64,000 nt of DNA from Candidatus Iainarchaeum sp. GTDB lineage: Archaea > Iainarchaeota > Iainarchaeia > Iainarchaeales > UBA10191. This document shows, piece by piece, positions 9,070-46,971 of this stretch. A program made the translations under genes and the position numbers. The notes below the pieces were generated by a model. It was not told the DNA's origin. It did not search any database and worked only from the letters and a program-made list of their open reading frames with translations. Position 1 is the stretch's first letter, and each line of letters begins with the position of its first letter. The DNA is taken from assembly GCA_030649735.1 (NCBI GenBank), contig JAUSFL010000036.1, positions 32,001 to 96,000 on the forward strand, read 5' to 3'.

Positions 9070-9816
9070 ATGCAAGAAATAACTCCAGAAATCAGCGAAA
9101 TTGCAGGAGTTTTTGCAGCTGATGGTTCAATGCAAGAAAAACACATTTGCTTTTGGGGCAATCCAATTGAAGACAAAGAATATTATGACAATGTACTTGG
9201 AGAATTATTCAAGAAAGCTTTTGGAATTGAAATCAGGCTGCATGAAAAGAAAAGCAATGGCGTTTACGGGTTTTACGTTTGCAAAAAGCACGTTTTGGAT
9301 TATTTCAAGAATGAATTAGGATTCAAGCCAGGCCCAAAAACATATACTGTTCAAGTCCCAAAAATAATTTTAGAAAGCAATGATTTGAAAATTCAAAAGG
9401 CTTTTGTGCAGGGATTCATGAGTGCTGACGGTTGTTTGACATTTTATAAAAGAGGCGGAACCGCTTCCAATTTCAATAAAAAATATAATGTTTGTCCCCG
9501 AATAATGTTAAGTTCTGTCTCTGAGAAAATAATTCTTCAGTTACAAGAAATATTAAATAAAATTGAGATCAATAGTTTTATTATGAAAGCAAAAAGTGCG
9601 AATCCCAAATGGAAAGATAACATTATACTTTACGTCAATGGCACAGAGCGAGTAAAAAGATGGAACGAGCTAATTGGCTTTTCAAATCCAAAGGACAAAA
9701 CAAAATTTGAAATATTCAAACAATTTGGCTTCTGCCCATTAAAAACAAGCATTTTTCAAAGATACAAGATTTTAAATAATGAATTAAGCATTTATGATTT
9801 TTATCAGGGCCCGTAA
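9070..9816 (+). CDS. Free-standing double-motif LAGLIDADG endonuclease-like protein (alternative TTG start 9031)
   Basis: EIAGVFAADGS and FVQGFMSADGC LAGLIDADG helices; IGFSNP C-terminal motif. Confidence 0.85.
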   Translation: MQEITPEISEIAGVFAADGSMQEKHICFWGNPIEDKEYYDNVLGELFKKAFGIEIRLHEKKSNGVYGFYVCKKHVLDYFKNELGFKPGPKTYTVQVPKIILESNDLKIQKAFVQGFMSADGCLTFYKRGGTASNFNKKYNVCPRIMLSSVSEKIILQLQEILNKIEINSFIMKAKSANPKWKDNIILYVNGTERVKRWNELIGFSNPKDKTKFEIFKQFGFCPLKTSIFQRYKILNNELSIYDFYQGP

Positions 9817-9904
9817 CTCAGCCTGGATAGAGTGCCAGCCTTCTACATAAAAATATTATTGTGGAGCTAGCTGGAGGTCGAGGGTTCAAATCCCTCCGGG
9901 CTCG
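9807..9904 (+). tRNA. tRNA-Arg(TCT) with 23-nt intron (9846-9868) at position 37/38
   Basis: Acceptor GGGCCCG/CGGGCTC, anticodon stem CCAGC/GCTGG, T-arm GAGGG-TTCAAAT-CCCTC; BHB with helix CTTC/GGAG and bulges TAC and CTA. Confidence 0.95.
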
Positions 9905-25555: not shown

Positions 25556-26794
25556 TTAATTCCAGCGCCTTTTGCTTTGCGGCCTTTGGAAATTCCTTCC
25601 GCCAGAACTGCCGCCCCGCCTGAAGTTTCCCCCGCCACGGCTTTCATGCCTGAAACTCTTGTGAGGCGAGAATTTTGGCGCCGGAATGTCGTCTGGAAGA
25701 ATTCTTTCGTCCAATTGCTTTCCCATTAAACGCTCAATTTGGCCTAAAGTGCCCATTTCTTCAGAATAACACAGCGAAATTGCCTCACCAACGGCTCTCA
25801 TTCTGCCAGTCCTGCCAATCCTGTGAATATAATAGTTGATGTCATGCGGCAATTCATAATTGAACACGTGAGAGACACTGTCAATGTGAATTCCCCTGGA
25901 TGCAACGTCAGTTGCTATCAAAATCCTGATTTTATGGTTTTTGAAGTCTTCCATTACAGCATTTCTTTTGGCCTGCGTCAAGTCTCCTTGAATGCCGGAA
26001 GCTGAAATTCCATTAAAATTCAATTGGACTTCCAAGTCTTCCACTTGGCGCTTGGTTTTGCAGAAAATTATTGCCCTTGAAGGATTCAACTGGTTAAGCA
26101 GGAAAATCAAGGAGCCAAGCTTTCTTCCAGGCAGTATTTGGAAAAAATACTGTTTTACGCCTTGCGCGCTCTTGTCTTCAGAAACCAATTTCACGTGCTG
26201 TGGAAAGCGCATGAAGTTTTTTGCCAACTGCATTACTTCCTGCGGAAAATCAACGCAAAACAATAAAGTCTGCTTTTTTTGCCCGGTGTAAGACATTATT
26301 TTTTCAACATCCCTGATGAATCCCATTGCAAGCATCAAGTCTGCCTCGTCAAGCACAAAAAACTTTATTCTGGACAAGTCCAAAGTATGCCTGCCCAATA
26401 AGTCCAAAACCCTTCCAGGAGTTCCGACAACAATTTGCGCTCCGGCGCGGATTTTAGCGGCCTGTCCGTCAATTCCAACGCCGCCGTAAACAACAACTGA
26501 ATTCAATTTGGAAAATTTTCCTATTTTCTTAAAGTCCTCAAAAACTTGGGTTGCAAGCTCTCTTGTCGGAACCAAAACAATTGCCTGGACAAAACGCTCT
26601 TCAGTAATCATTTCCAAAATAGGTATTGCAAAAGCCGCAGTCTTTCCAGTGCCAGTCCTTGACTGCACTATCAAATCCTCGCCTTTCAACACAAAAGGAA
26701 TGGCTTTTTCCTGCACTTCAGTGAAAGTTTCAAAGCCCAAACTAGCCAAGGCCTTAGTGGTATTTTCGCTTAATTCTACATTCAATCTAAACAT
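25556..26794 (-). CDS. DEAD-box RNA helicase
   Basis: Q motif, TGTGKT, PTRELA, DEAD, HRIGRTGR; RGG-rich tail. Confidence 0.95.
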   Translation of the reverse strand: MFRLNVELSENTTKALASLGFETFTEVQEKAIPFVLKGEDLIVQSRTGTGKTAAFAIPILEMITEERFVQAIVLVPTRELATQVFEDFKKIGKFSKLNSVVVYGGVGIDGQAAKIRAGAQIVVGTPGRVLDLLGRHTLDLSRIKFFVLDEADLMLAMGFIRDVEKIMSYTGQKKQTLLFCVDFPQEVMQLAKNFMRFPQHVKLVSEDKSAQGVKQYFFQILPGRKLGSLIFLLNQLNPSRAIIFCKTKRQVEDLEVQLNFNGISASGIQGDLTQAKRNAVMEDFKNHKIRILIATDVASRGIHIDSVSHVFNYELPHDINYYIHRIGRTGRMRAVGEAISLCYSEEMGTLGQIERLMGKQLDERILPDDIPAPKFSPHKSFRHESRGGGNFRRGGSSGGRNFQRPQSKRRWN

Positions 26795-27985: not shown

Positions 27986-27986
27986 A

Positions 27987-28071
27987 TGCAGGGGAAGGGA
28001 TTTGAACCCTCGAAGGCACTAAGCCACTACCCCCTCAAGGTAGCCGAATTGACCGGGCTATCGGACCCCTG
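27987..28071 (-). tRNA. tRNA-Leu(GAG)
   Basis: GCAGGGG/CCCCTGC acceptor, CTACC-TT-GAG-GG-GGTAG, long variable arm, TTCAAAT T-loop. Confidence 0.93.
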
Positions 28072-28130
28072 CAGTTTAACTAATTGTTTCCAAACCTGTT
28101 TTTCTTTACTTGTTTTTGCTAAAAAGGCAA

Positions 28131-28304
28131 CGCGGGGAACGAGATTCGAACTCGCGCTCCCTTTCGAGAACACGCTCTCAGAACTTCCTTTTTGAAGTGC
28201 AACTCGTATTTATGCAGTGCCGCAAAGCATTGCAGCGTACTTTGTTACTCGCGGGCAAAACCGCGATTCCAGGCGTGCGCATTGGACCGCTCTGCCATCC
28301 CCGC
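28131..28304 (-). tRNA. tRNA-Ser(GGA) with ~90-nt intron (about 28177-28266)
   Basis: GCGGGGA/TCCCCGC acceptor, G73, CACGC-CT-GGA-A[intron]A-GCGTG, long variable arm, GCGAG-TTCGAAT-CTCGT. Confidence 0.88.
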
Positions 28305-28383
28305 AATTAAAGATTTAATTCTGCTAAAGGATTAAAAACTGGTTTTAAATCAGAATAAAAGCATTAACAATCTTAATTTTGGA

Positions 28384-29286
28384 ATGAACCAAAATTTTTT
28401 AGGAATTGGCAGGCAATTTGCTGGATTGCTTGAGGGGAAAACTGCAGTTGTCACTGGAGCAGGCTCTGGATTGGGAAAGGCAATCGCATTAGGCCTGCCT
28501 TTTGCAGGAGTGAAAGTCGGAGTCTTGGACATCAATGCAAAGGCAGTCTTTGAAGTTGCTGAAAGAATAAACGCCGAGTTTGAAGGATTTGCTTTTCCAA
28601 TGATTGCAAGCGTCAGCGATGAAGGACAATTGCAAACTGCATATGCTGGCTTTGTGAAAGCCTTTGAAAAAATCGACATTTTAGTGAATTGCGCCGGAAT
28701 TGCAAGGCTTGCCGCAGTGAATGAATTAAGCGCCAAAGACATCAAACTCGCAAACGACGTCAACATTGACGGCTATTTCTTGAATGCAAAGATCGCTTCA
28801 GAATTCATGATTAAGGAAAAATGCGGAGAAATAATAAACATCAGTTCTGCCTCAGCGCGCGGAGCTTCTGAAAACTCATCACTTTACGGAGTTGCCAAAG
28901 AAACGCAGTGCATGATGGCAAGGTCTTGGGCAATGGACTTGGGAAAGCACAACATTCGCGTTAACGCAATCCTTGCGGGCGATTTGTTCGGAGATGAAAA
29001 TTTTGGGATTGATTCTGGAATCTGGAACAAGGACTATTTTGAAAAAAAGGCAGTCGACAAAGGGCTTGTGAAAGCAGGAGACAAAAGGATTAGTGGAGAA
29101 AAACTTCACCCAGAAGTCAGGGAAATGGTCATCCAGCATTACTGCAAAAGGACTGCTTTGGGAAAACAAATAGAGTACGCTGATGTCTTGAACTTGATTG
29201 CTTTCTTAAGCTCTGGATTGGGAAGCAAAATAACTGGAGAGTCAATTGCAATAACGTCCGGAAACCCAAGCGCTTTTTCAAGATAA
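28384..29286 (+). CDS. Short-chain dehydrogenase/reductase (sugar/polyol dehydrogenase-like)
   Basis: TGAGSGLG, NCAG, YGVAK, IRVNAI. Confidence 0.9.
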   Translation: MNQNFLGIGRQFAGLLEGKTAVVTGAGSGLGKAIALGLPFAGVKVGVLDINAKAVFEVAERINAEFEGFAFPMIASVSDEGQLQTAYAGFVKAFEKIDILVNCAGIARLAAVNELSAKDIKLANDVNIDGYFLNAKIASEFMIKEKCGEIINISSASARGASENSSLYGVAKETQCMMARSWAMDLGKHNIRVNAILAGDLFGDENFGIDSGIWNKDYFEKKAVDKGLVKAGDKRISGEKLHPEVREMVIQHYCKRTALGKQIEYADVLNLIAFLSSGLGSKITGESIAITSGNPSAFSR

Positions 29287-29295
29287 AGGAATCTG

Positions 29296-30099
29296 ATGAA
29301 CTCTGAAAAAGTGCAGGAATTTTACGAAAGATTTCCCTATCCCGACAAGCGCATTGAAACAAAGGAAAACCTCCAAAAAAATGCGGAATGGATTGCAAAG
29401 CTTGCTGAAAAAAAAATCCCAGAATTAAAAGGATTTAAAATGTTGGATGCAGGCTGCGGAACAGGAGAATTCGCATGCGGTTTTGCTCTTGGCGGCGCGA
29501 AAGTCTTGGGAATTGACTTGAGCGCAAAGTCAATTGAAAAGGCAAAAGCCCTCGCAAAAAAATTCAGGCTGGAAAATGCCGAATTCAGGCAAAGAAATTT
29601 GCTGAGTGAAGAACTGCCGGAAAAAAGCTTTGACTTGGTTTACAGCATGGGCGTATTGCACCATAATCCAAGCCCAAAAGAAGCCTTCAAAAAAATTTCA
29701 AGGCTGGTGAAGCCTGAAGGAATCATTGTGATTGGATTGTACAATTCTTTCGGAAGGTTTCCAGTGCATTGCAAAAGAAGAATTGTGGAATTGCTTGCTG
29801 GAAAAGACAGCGAGAAAAAGCTTTTGTTGGCAAACAGGCTATTTCACAAAGGAAAGCCAGTGACTGAGGCAAGAAAAGCATGGCTTGCTGACAAGTACTT
29901 GCACCCTTTGGAAAAGACATTAACAATTGAAGAAGTGCTGGACTGGCTTGAAAAAGAAGGATTTGAATTCTTGAACGCAAAGCCGGAAATTCCTGAAAGA
30001 AAAAACTTGCTTTTGCTCCAGCTGGAATGGATGATTTCTGGAGAAAGCTTTTTCACAATTGCTGGAAAAAAAAGACTTAACGCGGAGGACGAGATTTGA
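29296..30099 (+). CDS. Class I SAM-dependent methyltransferase
   Basis: FYERFPYP, LDAGCGTG, FDLVYSMGVLHH; last 19 nt overlap tRNA-Ser(TGA) on the other strand. Confidence 0.9.
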   Translation: MNSEKVQEFYERFPYPDKRIETKENLQKNAEWIAKLAEKKIPELKGFKMLDAGCGTGEFACGFALGGAKVLGIDLSAKSIEKAKALAKKFRLENAEFRQRNLLSEELPEKSFDLVYSMGVLHHNPSPKEAFKKISRLVKPEGIIVIGLYNSFGRFPVHCKRRIVELLAGKDSEKKLLLANRLFHKGKPVTEARKAWLADKYLHPLEKTLTIEEVLDWLEKEGFEFLNAKPEIPERKNLLLLQLEWMISGESFFTIAGKKRLNAEDEI

Positions 30100-30164
30100 A
30101 CTCGCGTATCCTTTCGGATACCAGCTCTCAAGGCTGGCGCATTTGACCACTCTGCCACCTCCGC
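30081..30164 (-). tRNA. tRNA-Ser(TGA)
   Basis: GCGGAGG/CCTCCGC, CCAGC-CT-TGA-GA-GCTGG, variable arm TATCC-GAAA-GGATA. Confidence 0.95.
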
Positions 30165-30231
30165 AAGCTTATGAATTAATAAAAGCAAATATTATTTTAT
30201 AAGATGCCTTGAATCTTAAAAAAGTGGTAAA

Positions 30232-30822
30232 ATGAACGATGAACAGGTTGCAATGGCTGTTTTGTTTTCTTCAACAATCATTCTGCTATTAAGCCTGAAT
30301 TTTGTCCTATTTTCAAGGGAAATCCACAATTTGGTTTTTTACCTGGCAATTCCATCAATCATTCTCCTGACTTGCGGAAAAAAACTAAAGGAGTATTTCT
30401 CAATAAATGCGAAAGAGTTTTTCTGCAAAGAGTTCCTGCTGGTCTTTGCAGTATTTCTCATTAGCGTGATTGCAGCGTCAAGAATTGCAGAGTTCAAGAA
30501 TTATTACGGCAGTTATTCGCAGGCATTGGTTTCAAACCCGCTTTATTTCATTGGAGCAAGCATCATCATTCTTTTCTCCTGGGAGTTTTTGTTCCGAAGC
30601 TTCATGATTAAAGGAATGAAAAGTTTTGGGAAAAGCGCTGTATTGATTCAGGCAATTCCTTTCGCTTTCATGCATTTCGGCAAGCCGGCGCTGGAATTGT
30701 ACGCTTCGTTCTTTGCGGGAATTCTTTTGGGGTATTTGGCATTAAAGCAAGAGTCTTTCATTGGCGCTTTCCTGCTGCACTTGATGGTTTATTTGCTGAT
30801 TCCCTTGCTTGTTCTTTTCTGA
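30232..30822 (+). CDS. CPBP (CAAX/Abi) family intramembrane metalloprotease
   Basis: WEFLFR, FAFMH, LLH motifs; hydrophobic. Confidence 0.85.
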   Translation: MNDEQVAMAVLFSSTIILLLSLNFVLFSREIHNLVFYLAIPSIILLTCGKKLKEYFSINAKEFFCKEFLLVFAVFLISVIAASRIAEFKNYYGSYSQALVSNPLYFIGASIIILFSWEFLFRSFMIKGMKSFGKSAVLIQAIPFAFMHFGKPALELYASFFAGILLGYLALKQESFIGAFLLHLMVYLLIPLLVLF

Positions 30823-30868
30823 AAAAGCCATTGGTTAAAATACTTTTGAGTTAACAGGTTTATACTTT

Positions 30869-31219
30869 ATGCAGGAAGAGAAAACTTGTGAAGGCTGCGG
30901 GGCAAAATGCTGCCGCGAGGCAAACGTATGGCTTGAAGAGCCAAAGACTGACGAAGACTTTGACGAGTGGAAATGGCTGTTAAGCCACAAAAGCCTGTAC
31001 ATTTACAATGATTCAAGGTATGGCTGGATGATTTGCTTTGAGACAGACTGCAAATTCTTGGACAATGAAAGCAAATGCGTCAATTATGCAAACAGGCCAA
31101 ACTTGTGCAAAGAATACGACATAAAAGACTGCATCAAGTACGGCAGCATGAAATTTGACCCGATTTTAAGGAATCCTGAAGACGTTGACGAATTGAAAAA
31201 AAAGCTTCAGAAAAAGTAA
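30869..31219 (+). CDS. YkgJ-family cysteine cluster protein
   Basis: CEGCGAKCC...CKFL...C..Y..RP..C. Confidence 0.85.
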   Translation: MQEEKTCEGCGAKCCREANVWLEEPKTDEDFDEWKWLLSHKSLYIYNDSRYGWMICFETDCKFLDNESKCVNYANRPNLCKEYDIKDCIKYGSMKFDPILRNPEDVDELKKKLQKK

Positions 31220-31222
31220 GAA

Positions 31223-31310
31223 GGAAGCAAGCCAGGGAATCTGCCCCACCATTAAAATAATAGCGCGTGGAAATTCTTCGTCCCCACAAAATGCAGTATG
31301 GCTTGCCCCC
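31223..31310 (-). ncRNA. Candidate free-standing structured ncRNA of unknown class
   Basis: 12-bp terminal stem enclosing a multi-helix junction; several pairs work only as G-U on the minus strand. Confidence 0.45.
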
Positions 31311-31395
31311 AAAACTCCCAATACTAAAGGATTAATTTGAAGTGGAAGAGTTTAAAAAAGAAATTGATGGTCTACATAAATGTTCGGAGACAATT

Positions 31396-31647
31396 ATGCC
31401 AATTGATTCAAACGAAAAGGAAAAAGAGAAAAAAGCAATTCAATTGGCAAAAAAGGCAATTATTGCAAAAGGCTACAGTGAAAAAGAATTCAAGCAATAT
31501 TCCTTGATTAAAAGCGGGCCAGTTGCAAAAAATCCCGCGCAGTGGCATTTGCATTTTGACATTGAAGACAAGACTGATTCTTCAATTGAAATAATTGTTG
31601 ACTTAAGCACTGGAAGAGCAGTTTATTTCAAAAACCAATGGGCTTGA
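31396..31647 (+). CDS. Small hypothetical protein
   Basis: ATG ORF (track start 31342 is a GTG). Confidence 0.55.
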   Translation: MPIDSNEKEKEKKAIQLAKKAIIAKGYSEKEFKQYSLIKSGPVAKNPAQWHLHFDIEDKTDSSIEIIVDLSTGRAVYFKNQWA

Positions 31648-31652
31648 ATTCT

Positions 31653-32357
31653 TCAAAAGGATTTTTCTTTAAAATCCTTCAGCCAGCTTTCAAAGAATTC
31701 TTCCTTAGAAAGACTAAAAATTCTTTCAAAAGCGGCAGTAATGCTTGAATCATTGCCTTTAATGAATTCAATAAGTTTCTTTTTGCCTTTTTTCTCCAAA
31801 AGCCACTTTATCATGCTGCCGCTTTGCTGGTAGAATAGAGTAACATGGCTGTCAAAATCAGAAGTAAACTCAAAATCAGCCCCAAATAAAAGAGCCCCTT
31901 GCTTTTCAATAAGCTCAATCACCCAGTTTTCATTGGTTTGGCTATTTATTGCATAAGGCAGGCCTTCCTTGAAAACAAAAGGCAAATCATTGGATTGTAT
32001 TTCCCTAATAAACAAATGGGATATTTCATGCCCTGTTGTTTTCTGAAAGCGATCCAGCTTGTTGTTGGAAAGTTCTTCCAACACTGTTGGAGATAGGAAA
32101 AAGAGCTGGTTTTTGAGTGTTTTAATGGCATATGCTGACAGCCACTTGTTTTCCAAAGCATATTCAGGCGGAATCCAATTCTTTGAAAATTCTTCCCTAG
32201 TGTAGTAAAAAAAGACTTTAAACTTCAATTCAAACCCAAAAAATCCAACATTCCGCTTATATCCTTCAGTAATGCTTTGAACAATCAAATCTTTGAACTG
32301 TTCTTTTTCACCATCATATGAAAACTCGCAAAAGCCAAGATCTTCAACTTTAAGCAT
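31653..32357 (-). CDS. Peptidase MA-like (gluzincin) protein
   Basis: GHEISHLF...EGLP; starts 15 nt after tRNA-Ala 3' end. Confidence 0.75.
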   Translation of the reverse strand: MLKVEDLGFCEFSYDGEKEQFKDLIVQSITEGYKRNVGFFGFELKFKVFFYYTREEFSKNWIPPEYALENKWLSAYAIKTLKNQLFFLSPTVLEELSNNKLDRFQKTTGHEISHLFIREIQSNDLPFVFKEGLPYAINSQTNENWVIELIEKQGALLFGADFEFTSDFDSHVTLFYQQSGSMIKWLLEKKGKKKLIEFIKGNDSSITAAFERIFSLSKEEFFESWLKDFKEKSF

Positions 32358-32372
32358 TTTCAAACCTAAAAA

Positions 32373-32443
32373 TGGACCCGGCGGGAATCGCACCCGCGCT
32401 ACGTCCTTGCGAAGGACGAGTCCTACTACTAGACTACGGGCCC
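32373..32443 (-). tRNA. tRNA-Ala(CGC)
   Basis: GGGCCCG/CGGGTCC with G3:U70, CGTCC-TT-CGC-AA-GGACG; atypical T-loop TGCGATT. Confidence 0.92.
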
Positions 32444-32475
32444 AATAAGAAACAGTTGAAGGAAAGAGTATTTAT

Positions 32476-32532
32476 GCGCTATTGCTTGCAATAGCGCGAC
32501 GTACGCGCACGTAAACTGGACGTGACGGTTTT
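32476..32532 (-). ncRNA. tRNA-trailer structured motif, copy 1 (after tRNA-Trp)
   Basis: AAAC-CGT-CACGT-CCA-GTTT-ACGTG-CGCGT-ACGTC plus 10-bp hairpin; homologous to 46531-46583 with compensatory changes. Confidence 0.75.
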
Positions 32533-32605
32533 TGGGGACACGGGGATTTGAACCCCGACTTAAAGGTCTGGAGCCTTTCGCGCTACCAGGTTACGCAATG
32601 TCCCC
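32533..32605 (-). tRNA. tRNA-Trp(CCA), intronless
   Basis: GGGGACA/TGTCCCC, AAAGG-CT-CCA-GA-CCTTT, CGGGG-TTCAAAT-CCCCG. Confidence 0.95.
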
Positions 32606-32827
32606 ATTCAGGTCTTGAAAGTAAGATAAAGAATTAACGTTCAAAAAAGTTTTAAAACTAGAGAAAAGCAAGAAAAAGGCGTCAATGCCAGGGTAAATCA
32701 ACTTTTGCCATTGTAATCAAATTTACTTGGCTTGTTTTTTTAAACTTAAGCGCAAAACCTGCTTGAAAAATGCAAGGCTTTAAAATAGCTAAAGCATTAT
32801 TTTAATCAAAGAACTAAAGTGGTCTCT

Positions 32828-46423: not shown

Positions 46424-46447
46424 GAAAATTTTTAACAAAAGTATTAT

Positions 46448-46530
46448 GCGGGGATGGCAGAGTGGTCTAATGCAACAGTCTCGAAAACTGTGTCCGCAAG
46501 GACTCGTCGGTTCAAATCCGGCTCCCCGCG
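46448..46530 (+). tRNA. tRNA-Ser(CGA)
   Basis: GCGGGGA/TCCCCGC, ACAGT-CT-CGA-AA-ACTGT, variable arm GTCC-GCAA-GGAC, G73. Confidence 0.95.
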
Positions 46531-46583
46531 TGCCCGTCACGCCCAGGCAGCGTGCGCGAACGTCGAGCCATTTTCAATGGCTC
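46531..46583 (+). ncRNA. tRNA-trailer structured motif, copy 2 (after tRNA-Ser CGA)
   Basis: TGCC-CGT-CACGC-CCA-GGCA-GCGTG-CGCGA-ACGTC-GAGCCATT-TTC-AATGGCTC. Confidence 0.75.
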
Positions 46584-46590
46584 ATTAATT

Positions 46591-46971
46591 CTACTTTTTT
46601 TGCGCAGTGTCTTCCTTCATTATCATTTTAACAATCAAGAAGACAACTAAAGCGATTATTGCAAAGTCTATTACTGCGCCGACAAAATCGCCAATCAAGA
46701 ATTTCACAGGGCCTAACTGAAGTATTGAAGCTCTCCAGTCTCCGCCGGGAACCAGCACTGCAATTAATGGCATTATCAAATCAGTCACTATTGCGGTGAT
46801 AAGCTTTGTTGACGCCACGCCAATAACAAAAGCAACAGCAAGAGCCAAAACCTGGTATTTTTTCAAGAACTTCTTGAAATCTGAAATGAAACCTTTTCCC
46901 GCATTCCGGACTTTAAGCAATTCTTCAGCTTTCAGTTTTTCTCTCAATAGATTACTTCCTAATTTGGCCAA
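46591..46971 (-). CDS. mscL: Large-conductance mechanosensitive channel
   Basis: DFKKFL, LAVAFVIG, DLIMPLI, GDFVGAVIDF. Confidence 0.9.
   Translation of the reverse strand: MAKLGSNLLREKLKAEELLKVRNAGKGFISDFKKFLKKYQVLALAVAFVIGVASTKLITAIVTDLIMPLIAVLVPGGDWRASILQLGPVKFLIGDFVGAVIDFAIIALVVFLIVKMIMKEDTAQKK

Follow-up and report, generated by a model that had tools for sequence, protein, structure and literature searches.

A structured miniature repeat, probably mobile, beside tRNA and other stable-RNA genes of small archaeal genomes

Here, we analyse a sequence motif that directly follows tRNA-Ser(cga) in a 64,000-nucleotide (nt) stretch of DNA from Candidatus Iainarchaeum sp. (contig JAUSFL010000036.1, positions 32,001 to 96,000; this whole stretch is called the window below). 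A preliminary description, made from the sequence of the window, took this motif and a second copy downstream of tRNA-Trp(cca) for a pseudoknot-plus-hairpin RNA fused to tRNA 3′ ends, possibly a ribozyme for 3′ processing. We find that the motif is probably one copy of a structured miniature mobile repeat, belonging to a previously undescribed family that has at least 86 members in small archaeal genomes, 64 in a first subfamily and 22 in a sister subfamily. In each unit, an H-type pseudoknot is combined with a variable hairpin, a tail box that is short and A/T-rich, and a polar end formed by stem 1. It is about 60–75 nt long (solo units of 63 nt are complete), and composites occur. Positions are numbered such that the base preceding stem 1 is position 1. 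The multi-copy nature of the element, its insertion polymorphism and its target-site duplications had not been foreseen in the preliminary description.

Two copies are proven insertions, because empty sites exist in sister species and target duplications of 26–27 bp surround the element. The first, on contig C2 of genome G018, lies in about 165 nt of DNA lacking in G015, G016, G017 and G019. A 27 bp sequence, CTTCAAATAATTTTTTTTCCATGTTTA, is duplicated around the insertion and single in these four genomes. Besides one unit, the inserted DNA contains a second hairpin and, flush with the duplication, an inverted sister-subfamily unit. No donor locus for this 165-nt composite was found; only its parts recur. 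The second insertion, on contig C4 of G019, is a solo 63-nt unit with a duplication of 26–27 bp, and it is lacking in G016, G017 and G018. Direct repeats of 25–28 nt also flank the copies at loci L042, L088 and L150, an imperfect repeat of about 25 nt is found at L070, and repeats of 13–17 nt flank L009, L041 and a degenerate copy on contig C22 of the window genome (15 nt in this last case). Identical elements sit at two G017 loci 7 kb apart. Variants are genome-specific, and G018 has its own in at least six copies. The tRNA-Trp of a related genome, G001, is without the element, and lone parts of the element recur, for example one hairpin type.

The two window copies are beyond chance. A degenerate 31-nt core pattern has two matches in the window, none in 100 dinucleotide-preserving shuffles, and only the same two across the whole 1.28-Mb genome (related genomes measure 0.3–1.5 Mb). 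A 30-nt pattern with up to 3 mismatches matched 9 of 215 genomes of the class, against 1 for the reversed-pattern control. With a 21-nt pattern and up to 2 mismatches, 36 of 171 genomes matched; since the reversed control matched 17, only matches with 0–1 mismatch and a paired stem 1 were trusted. With up to 2 mismatches allowed, the pattern matched genome G092 at 16 places. From 64 copies we built a covariance model (R1), which found 1–15 copies per genome in all nine genomes of family f4. In the window genome, R1 recovered the two strong window copies and two degenerate ones, namely the C22 copy mentioned above and a copy on C40 that adjoins the ATG of an opposite-strand gene. The sister subfamily (L276–L299, family f4; 22 copies with at least 4 of 5 stem-1 pairs) has the same architecture, with loop GCCNCTGTC and tail RCACCAG, and occurs in similar contexts.

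With one genome taken per species, an exact-pattern scan gave at least 120 stretches, mostly chance matches in GC-rich bacteria, and counts from it are lower bounds. Among the matches listed, at least eight loci hold the motif in full, stem 1 being perfect and position 6 a T, and they lie in archaeal or low-to-mid-GC records: L036, L041 and L054 (uncultured archaeon), L042 (Altiarchaeales), L070 (a single-cell euryarchaeote), L088 (Methanobacteriota), L118 and L131. Viral contigs contained no true copy, their 11 pattern matches all being chance matches without stem 1. No Rfam family matched the element, and no paper, as far as the main text of papers goes, was found to describe it; literature occurrences of its 11-mer core, on either strand, were all unrelated, and the part of a genome-language-model preprint that was covered has nothing on archaeal tRNA-linked pseudoknots.

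Covariation across the family defines the fold. Stem 1 (positions 2–6 with 16–20) is 97.3% paired over 83 distinct sequences, with double changes in four of its five pairs. The preliminary description was thus right that stem 1 forms and covaries, also in a larger alignment, and erred in its length, which is 5 bp. The stem-1 loop has 9 nt and is conserved; the loops generally are highly conserved and unpaired. A 3-bp helix between loop and tail, S2 (11–13 with 25–27), is 98.4% paired over the same sequences, as CGC:GCG in the first subfamily and CUG:CAG in the sister subfamily. Pair 12:26 is GC in 59 and UA in 20 sequences, and pair 13:25 is CG in 56, GC in 22 and UA in 2, with U-A and G-C exchanges seen within the first subfamily too. 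In 500 shuffles, covariation never scored as high as observed, and controls with slid partners were 20–38% paired. Stem 2 had been placed differently before, at 9–13 with 21–25. That register is paired in only 52% over the 83 distinct members, and its pair 9:25 is lost in exactly those sequences where 13:25 compensates. It also leaves no linker across stem 1, so that the two helices could not coexist. The earlier register is a peculiarity of the window genome's copies, whereas the pseudoknotted fold as such, stem 1 and the hairpin hold throughout the family.

Positions 6, 16 and 23 co-vary, reading TAA in 45, CGG in 9 and other combinations in 7 of 61 distinct copies. Position 23 tracks the top pair of stem 1, behaving like the third member of a base triple with it. 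The window copies have an unusual CAG form here, their top pair (C6/A16) being mismatched. Read on the complement strand, the core is a standard H-type pseudoknot, 5′-CGC AUGN NNNNU GG GCG UGAC ANNNN-3′. On grounds of geometry and isostericity, its first loop may run through the major groove of the 5-bp stem, with position 23 in U.A-U or C+.G-C triples. The region past the pseudoknot, folded for 61 copies, has 48 G.U pairs and a summed energy of −869 kcal/mol on the complement, compared with 26 G.U pairs and −779 kcal/mol on the strand read earlier. The hairpin in this region is free in sequence and keeps its pairing. Beyond it, the tail box occurs in variants such as TAATCAA, TAATAC, TAAATAC and TAATTC, and similarity between copies stops there. 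Aligned copies also show a co-change of GWA and TWC (GAA/TTC, GTA/TAC, ATA/TAT); in the Ser copy, GAA at 46558–46560 could pair with TTC at 46589–46591. A hairpin module, GCACTATC-ttcgc..gctc-GATAG(T/A)GC (e.g. L186 523–553), recurs at many loci without the pseudoknot, which implies that the repeats are modular mosaics.

The genomic contexts share a polarity. With its stem-1 end flush against a gene boundary, the element points away from the gene, and always away from tRNA. In the first subfamily, 8 of 64 copies lie behind a same-strand tRNA 3′ end (both window copies and a same-genus copy among them), 21 of 64 against an opposite-strand tRNA 5′ end, and 4 of 64 within a tRNA intron; the corresponding numbers for the sister subfamily are 2, 7 and 2 of 22. 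Fusion to tRNA 3′ ends, as first described, therefore applies to only 10 of 86 copies, as against 28 of 86 at opposite-strand tRNA 5′ ends. Intron copies occur in both orientations, and three of the four in the first subfamily begin at the 5′ splice site. One copy begins at the base after the end of an archaeal signal recognition particle (SRP) RNA (Rfam, 145 bits). At least four long opposite-strand open reading frames (ORFs) have their ATG at the element junction, at least three ORFs terminate at or within the first bases of the element, and in 13 of 62 copies, including the Ser copy of the window, the stop of a complement-strand ORF falls at the tail box.

Other stable-RNA loci carry more than one unit. 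In G092 (L304 1500–2029, C38), the RNase P RNA gene contains, just ahead of the conserved block ACA(A/G)AAGG..GGCUUA, a two-unit composite whose stem-1 ends face outward. This gene is the sole RNase P RNA match in G092, spanning 529 nt against a 288-position model (36.7 bits). Either the insertion is tolerated, or it is removed, or the gene is broken; no bulge-helix-bulge splice motif is evident around the insertion in the minimum-free-energy fold. On G018:C59 (L284 1495–1634), the intron of a tRNA-Ala(cgc) begins with a sister-subfamily unit, and another unit directly follows the 3′ end of this tRNA; both are on the tRNA strand. At L041 (700–1300), the last 17 nt of a single tRNA-Gly occur three times and its first 15 nt twice, with short structured inserts between them, a pattern that suggests repeated insertion.

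These contexts also speak for an alternative, that the motif is a functional cis-acting RNA of the complement strand: an intergenic module with a pseudoknot ending where the next gene begins, its mobility being secondary or its spread due to duplication. RNase P, cutting at the following tRNA, would free an upstream RNA whose 3′ end, tucked into a pseudoknot that contains the triple, would be protected from 3′ exonucleases; in the window, the antisense tRNA cloverleaf could be the RNase P substrate. We consider this explanation unlikely on balance, yet it stays live because the pseudoknot so often ends at the first base of the next gene. Its final base on the complement strand meets a tRNA 5′ end in 28 of 86 copies and an ATG in at least four. 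The 13 ORFs that stop at the tail box, the better fold of the complement, the reading of TAA and CGG as U.A-U and C+.G-C on that strand, and the presence of RNase P RNA in the window genome are all in its favour. So are two further findings, which fit an in-place RNA function as well as they fit a repeat: the tRNA-Glu 5′ end carries the element, as different variants, in six of six species of one genus, and the hairpins of same-genus copies differ by compensatory changes. What stands against a cis-acting role is that 10 copies behind tRNA 3′ ends have the other orientation, that intron copies point both ways, and that no complement-strand ORF lies upstream of the window's Trp copy. Moreover, recent insertions, decayed copies and homogenisation within genomes are typical of selfish repeats. 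A mobile repeat and a cis-acting RNA are not mutually exclusive. They could be combined in a promoter-less, hitch-hiking mobile small RNA gene, which would insert behind the promoter of a tRNA or leaderless mRNA and exactly ahead of its first base, or just after a stable RNA, and would be released with exact ends by RNase P or RNase Z. Capped at its 3′ end by the triple-containing pseudoknot, the product might serve as template or intermediate for insertion by a putative machinery with a 26–27 bp ruler, or, taken over by the host, protect the 3′ ends of upstream transcripts. We regard this combination as quite doubtful.

Besides the tRNA-Glu copies and the compensatory changes, several observations weigh against the element being a mobile repeat. 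At opposite-strand tRNA 5′ ends, none of the 21 first-subfamily copies has a flanking duplication of at least 9 nt within 350 nt. The window copies are likewise without duplication, and neither tRNA 3′ end recurs in the genome over 11 nt or more. A staggered cut of 26–27 bp thus does not account for the flush junctions at tRNA ends. Copies of this kind may be old insertions in which the repeat has decayed, or they may have another origin. Within the pseudoknot, a count by eye of G.U against A.C (6 versus 5) does not separate the strands. Nor was a mobilising enzyme found in profile searches of five element-bearing genomes, which are incomplete metagenome bins (89–94% complete). A Y1 (HUH) transposase (PF01797) was found in none of the five, with matching controls; Cas1 (PF01867) was also found in none, and we rejected a casposon derivative as a candidate. 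A reverse transcriptase was found in one of the five, as was TnpB, which is absent from the multi-copy genomes G015, G018, G019 and G092. Tyrosine recombinases occur in all five, yet G018, with 15 copies of the element, has just one, which we read as putatively XerA-like. No element-linked ORF or autonomous transposase-coding relative was seen, in searches that did not extend to DDE transposases and PrimPol-type enzymes.

The tyrosine recombinases bear on a further possibility, that the motif is an arm or attachment (att) site of an integrative element, such as a plasmid or virus, that targets tRNA genes. The association with tRNA genes fits this idea, as do a direct repeat of the tRNA 3′ end after the element in L041 and one of the tRNA 5′ part in L088. 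The duplicated sequences are, however, ordinary target DNA, single-copy in sister species, and do not represent a fixed att core. Units of just 63 nt are complete, no true copy is found among the 11 pattern matches in viral contigs, and the window copies have no repeated tRNA end and are neighboured by housekeeping genes. Intramolecular covariation would also be unexpected for a double-stranded protein-binding site. Taken together, these points make an att site improbable. In the window itself, a weak, sub-threshold match to a phage-integrase domain (20.9 bits) lies at 25823–26083 on the minus strand (G000:C46:57823–58083), in a 414-aa open frame 2 kb from a tRNA cluster.

IS200/IS605 transposons are not known to make target duplications. 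The duplications of 26–27 bp seen here are one reason why we hold a derivative of this group (a palindrome-associated or REP-like element), or a scaffold of a TnpB guide RNA, to be very improbable. A hairpin-based fold with a short stem, possibly serving as a guide/cleavage-site pair, would suit such an origin, TnpB is present in the window genome, and the tail box, read in reverse complement (TTGATTA or GTATTAC), resembles known target motifs. Against this are the lack of Y1 in five of five genomes and of TnpB in the four multi-copy ones, and the location of the window copies, which adjoin tRNAs and a membrane-protein ORF and not a tnpB 3′ end. The window genome has two intact TnpB-like genes on C44 (L218, L219), with frames of 374 and 408 aa that score 85 and 82 bits to PF07282; both are unlinked to the element.

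Table 1. Positions of the two window copies, their parts and the adjoining genes (window numbering)
Feature	Position	Strand	Sequence, basis or remark
tRNA-Ser(cga)	46447–46530	+	ARAGORN 46447–46531; Rfam tRNA 46448–46530, 56 bits
Discriminator G of tRNA-Ser(cga)	46530	+	Element position 1
Ser copy, whole element	46531–46591	+	Begins directly after tRNA-Ser(cga)
Ser copy, stem 1	46531–46535 with 46545–46549	+	TGCCC (5′ strand) with AGGCA (3′ strand); sequence
Ser copy, stem-1 loop (9 nt)	46536–46544	+	GTCACGCCC; sequence
Ser copy, pseudoknot helix S2	46540–46542 with 46554–46556	+	C11 G12 C13 with G25 C26 G27; family pairing
Ser copy, position 23	46552	+	G; tracks top stem-1 pair in family
Ser copy, hairpin	46565–46583	+	GAGCCATT-ttc-AATGGCTC; compensatory changes relative to Trp copy and same-genus G003 copy
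Ser copy, tail box	46584–46591	+	ATTAATTC; sequence
Convergent 126-aa membrane-protein ORF	46591–46971	−	ORF list; stop codon 46591–46593 contacts tail box of Ser copy
tRNA-Trp(cca)	32533–32605	−	ARAGORN 32532–32606; Rfam 32533–32605, 64 bits; upstream of second copy
Trp copy, whole element	32468–32531	−	Pattern match; covariance model R1, 38.5 bits, E=1.1e-5
Trp copy, stem 1	32531–32527 with 32517–32513	−	AAACC with AGTTT; sequence
Trp copy, loop		−	GTCACGTCC; sequence
Trp copy, S2	32522–32520 with 32508–32506	−	C G T with G C G; sequence
Trp copy, hairpin	32497–32476	−	GCGCTATT-gcaagc-AATAGCGC; sequence
Trp copy, tail box	32475–32468	−	ATAAATAC; sequence
tRNA-Ala(cgc)	32372–32444	−	ARAGORN; 23 nt downstream of Trp-copy tail box

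The coordinates of the window copies are collected in Table 1. Both sequences are exactly as first reported (46531–46583 on the plus strand and 32476–32531 on the minus strand). Through the core, their alignment is free of gaps, and the linkers are identical. Every compensatory difference that had been claimed is present: three in stem 1 (TGCC/GGCA versus AAAC/GTTT), two in the terminal hairpin (GAGCCATT/AATGGCTC versus GCGCTATT/AATAGCGC) and one in the stem 2 then proposed. Of the reported extent, the start stands and the end does not, the element being 8 nt longer and reaching to the conserved A/T box (46584–46591 in the Ser copy, 32468–32475 in the Trp copy). The 126-aa ORF on the far side of the Ser copy looks, by eye, like a putative MscL. 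Its stop codon touches the tail box, and the Ser copy hence occupies the entire intergenic gap. The Trp copy fills the spacer between tRNA-Trp and tRNA-Ala. Its tail box lies at about −32 to −25 relative to tRNA-Ala, where an archaeal TATA box is expected, and may serve as a putative TATA box for this gene. At L009, the tail box is 37 nt ahead of an ATG. The element may, to judge from such placements, be a supplier of putative outward promoters.

In related strains, represented in DNA contigs of three sequencing runs, both window loci retain the element, and neither locus showed an empty site in these contigs. The strains of run X3 have C for T at position 13 of the Trp copy (window 32520), which restores a C-G pair. 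The genes near the window copies are housekeeping genes. Elsewhere in the window, five or six tRNA genes cluster at 27986–32606, and Rfam tRNAs of 98 and 174 nt, absent from the default ARAGORN run, lie at 9807–9904 and 28131–28304; these two probably carry introns. Intron-bearing tRNAs, the archaeal RNase P RNA of the genome and the small genomes of its relatives mark the source as an archaeon, presumably of the DPANN group.

The position of the window copies directly behind tRNAs had raised the possibility of a self-cleaving ribozyme, or another 3′-trailer element, that matures the tRNA 3′ end. The 10 of 86 copies that directly follow a same-strand discriminator, the copy behind SRP RNA and the highly conserved unpaired loops would be in keeping with this, and phage theta ribozymes are reported to lie beside viral tRNAs (PMC10879173). 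Only a minority of copies, however, lie downstream of a tRNA on its strand, orientation to the tRNA being inconstant, and it is the other strand that folds better. RNase Z is encoded in the window genome (TIGR02651, 327 bits; cut-off 293), which also has an archaeal RNase P RNA. We judge an autocatalytic trailer extremely unlikely from these sequence features. The window copies are probably dispensable for tRNA 3′ processing.

The ribozyme families that could be named do not match either. A permissive Rfam scan of 201 nt (46440–46640) yielded only tRNA at E≤0.1; the list also included PGK (E=3.2) and Plastid-ycf2 (E=0.13, overlying the tRNA). At gathering score, the whole window gave tRNAs only, in agreement with the earlier statement that the motif belongs to no Rfam family. 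No ribozyme family matched at E≤10 in 46440–46640, and hammerhead, twister, twister-sister, pistol and hatchet matched neither there nor in the gathering-score scan of the window; for hammerhead, twister and pistol the lack of a core had been noted before. The hepatitis delta virus (HDV) ribozyme is a nested double pseudoknot in the order P1-P2-P3-P1′-P1.1-P4-P2′. Helix order (as had been noted) and spacing in our element are incompatible with it: 9–11 nt between the strands of stem 1 are too short for P2 and P3, nothing pairs beyond the hairpin in the HDV order, and no HDV-type model of Rfam matches. HDV-like and theta ribozymes were accordingly set aside. An H-type pseudoknot riboswitch (e.g. 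preQ1-I) was also rejected, there being no Rfam match and the contexts being tRNA ends, ORF ends and introns.

How would a mobile repeat of this kind work? In the scheme we favour, the fold would be the structure by which a putative integration machinery recognises a single-stranded DNA or RNA intermediate, and the folding strand would be the complement of the strand read earlier. The ends of stable-RNA genes would be preferred, or at least tolerated, landing sites. Once landed, an element would become leader, trailer or intron sequence, to be removed by RNase P, RNase Z or the splicing endonuclease. The window copies, which lack flanking duplications, would be older residents.

Small symbiotic archaea are, to our knowledge, thought to be poor in mobile elements, and we know of hardly any description of their non-coding DNA. 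In these genomes, a repeat of 60–75 nt takes up a large part of the introns and flanks of tRNA genes. The element may explain the origin of long tRNA leaders, trailers and introns in these lineages, and a covariance model of it would account for many 'orphan' conserved intergenic blocks in annotation. A well-supported pseudoknot is unusual among miniature repeats. The duplications of 26–27 bp match no transposase family known to us, and point to an integration mechanism outside the known ones.

Several known systems share parts of this picture. HDV-like theta ribozymes at phage tRNA 3′ ends (PMC10879173) likewise place a small pseudoknotted motif directly after a tRNA, as is seen in 10 of 86 copies here; most of our copies, in contrast, are on the other strand or beside other genes, and the hosts are archaeal genomes, not phages. 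Casposons have target duplications of 14–15 bp, carry terminal inverted repeats and encode Cas1 and a polymerase, features in which they differ from our element. Casposons and their Cas1 integrase (PMC4046053, PMC4779613) resemble it in being archaeal mobile DNA with long target duplications and tRNA 3′ ends as targets, but Cas1 was found in none of our five genomes. The retroelements Ty3 and Dictyostelium TRE target tRNA genes. They too insert within a few bases of tRNA gene boundaries, which are safe havens in compact genomes; they are, however, eukaryotic and guided by RNA polymerase III factors, whereas no reverse transcriptase was found in four of our five genomes.

The RNAs MALAT1 and MEN-beta end in a triple helix, downstream of which a tRNA-like structure (mascRNA in the case of MALAT1) is cut by RNase P. 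On the complement strand, the element would similarly form a triple-containing structure that ends where an RNase P substrate begins, and it could act alike. It differs in being a 26-nt pseudoknot instead of an A-rich tail clamped by U-rich motifs, in its archaeal hosts and in its inconstant orientation.

The closest parallels are found among miniature repeats. Like MITEs (miniature inverted-repeat transposable elements), repetitive extragenic palindromic (REP) sequences and bacterial interspersed mosaic elements (BIMEs), Correia/NEMIS elements and Rickettsia palindromic elements, the family is short, non-coding, multi-copy, hairpin-forming and modular. It further shares with them sites at gene ends in compact genomes, tolerance in transcripts, target duplications and insertion polymorphism. 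As regards the features by which MITEs are recognised, it is short and non-coding, has many copies and makes target-site duplications at the proven insertions. Its solo units have unlike ends, two composites hold two units with their stem-1 ends outward, and no autonomous transposase-coding relative was seen in the searches described above. Unlike all these repeats, it is built on an H-type pseudoknot with a triple-like third position and not on a simple palindrome or terminal inverted repeats. Its solo units are asymmetric, its duplications of 26–27 bp are unusually long, it has no known partner transposase, and its preference for the ends of genes for tRNA and other stable RNAs is strong and polar. 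By analogy, then, the element appears to work most like repeats of the REP/BIME type or the MITE type.

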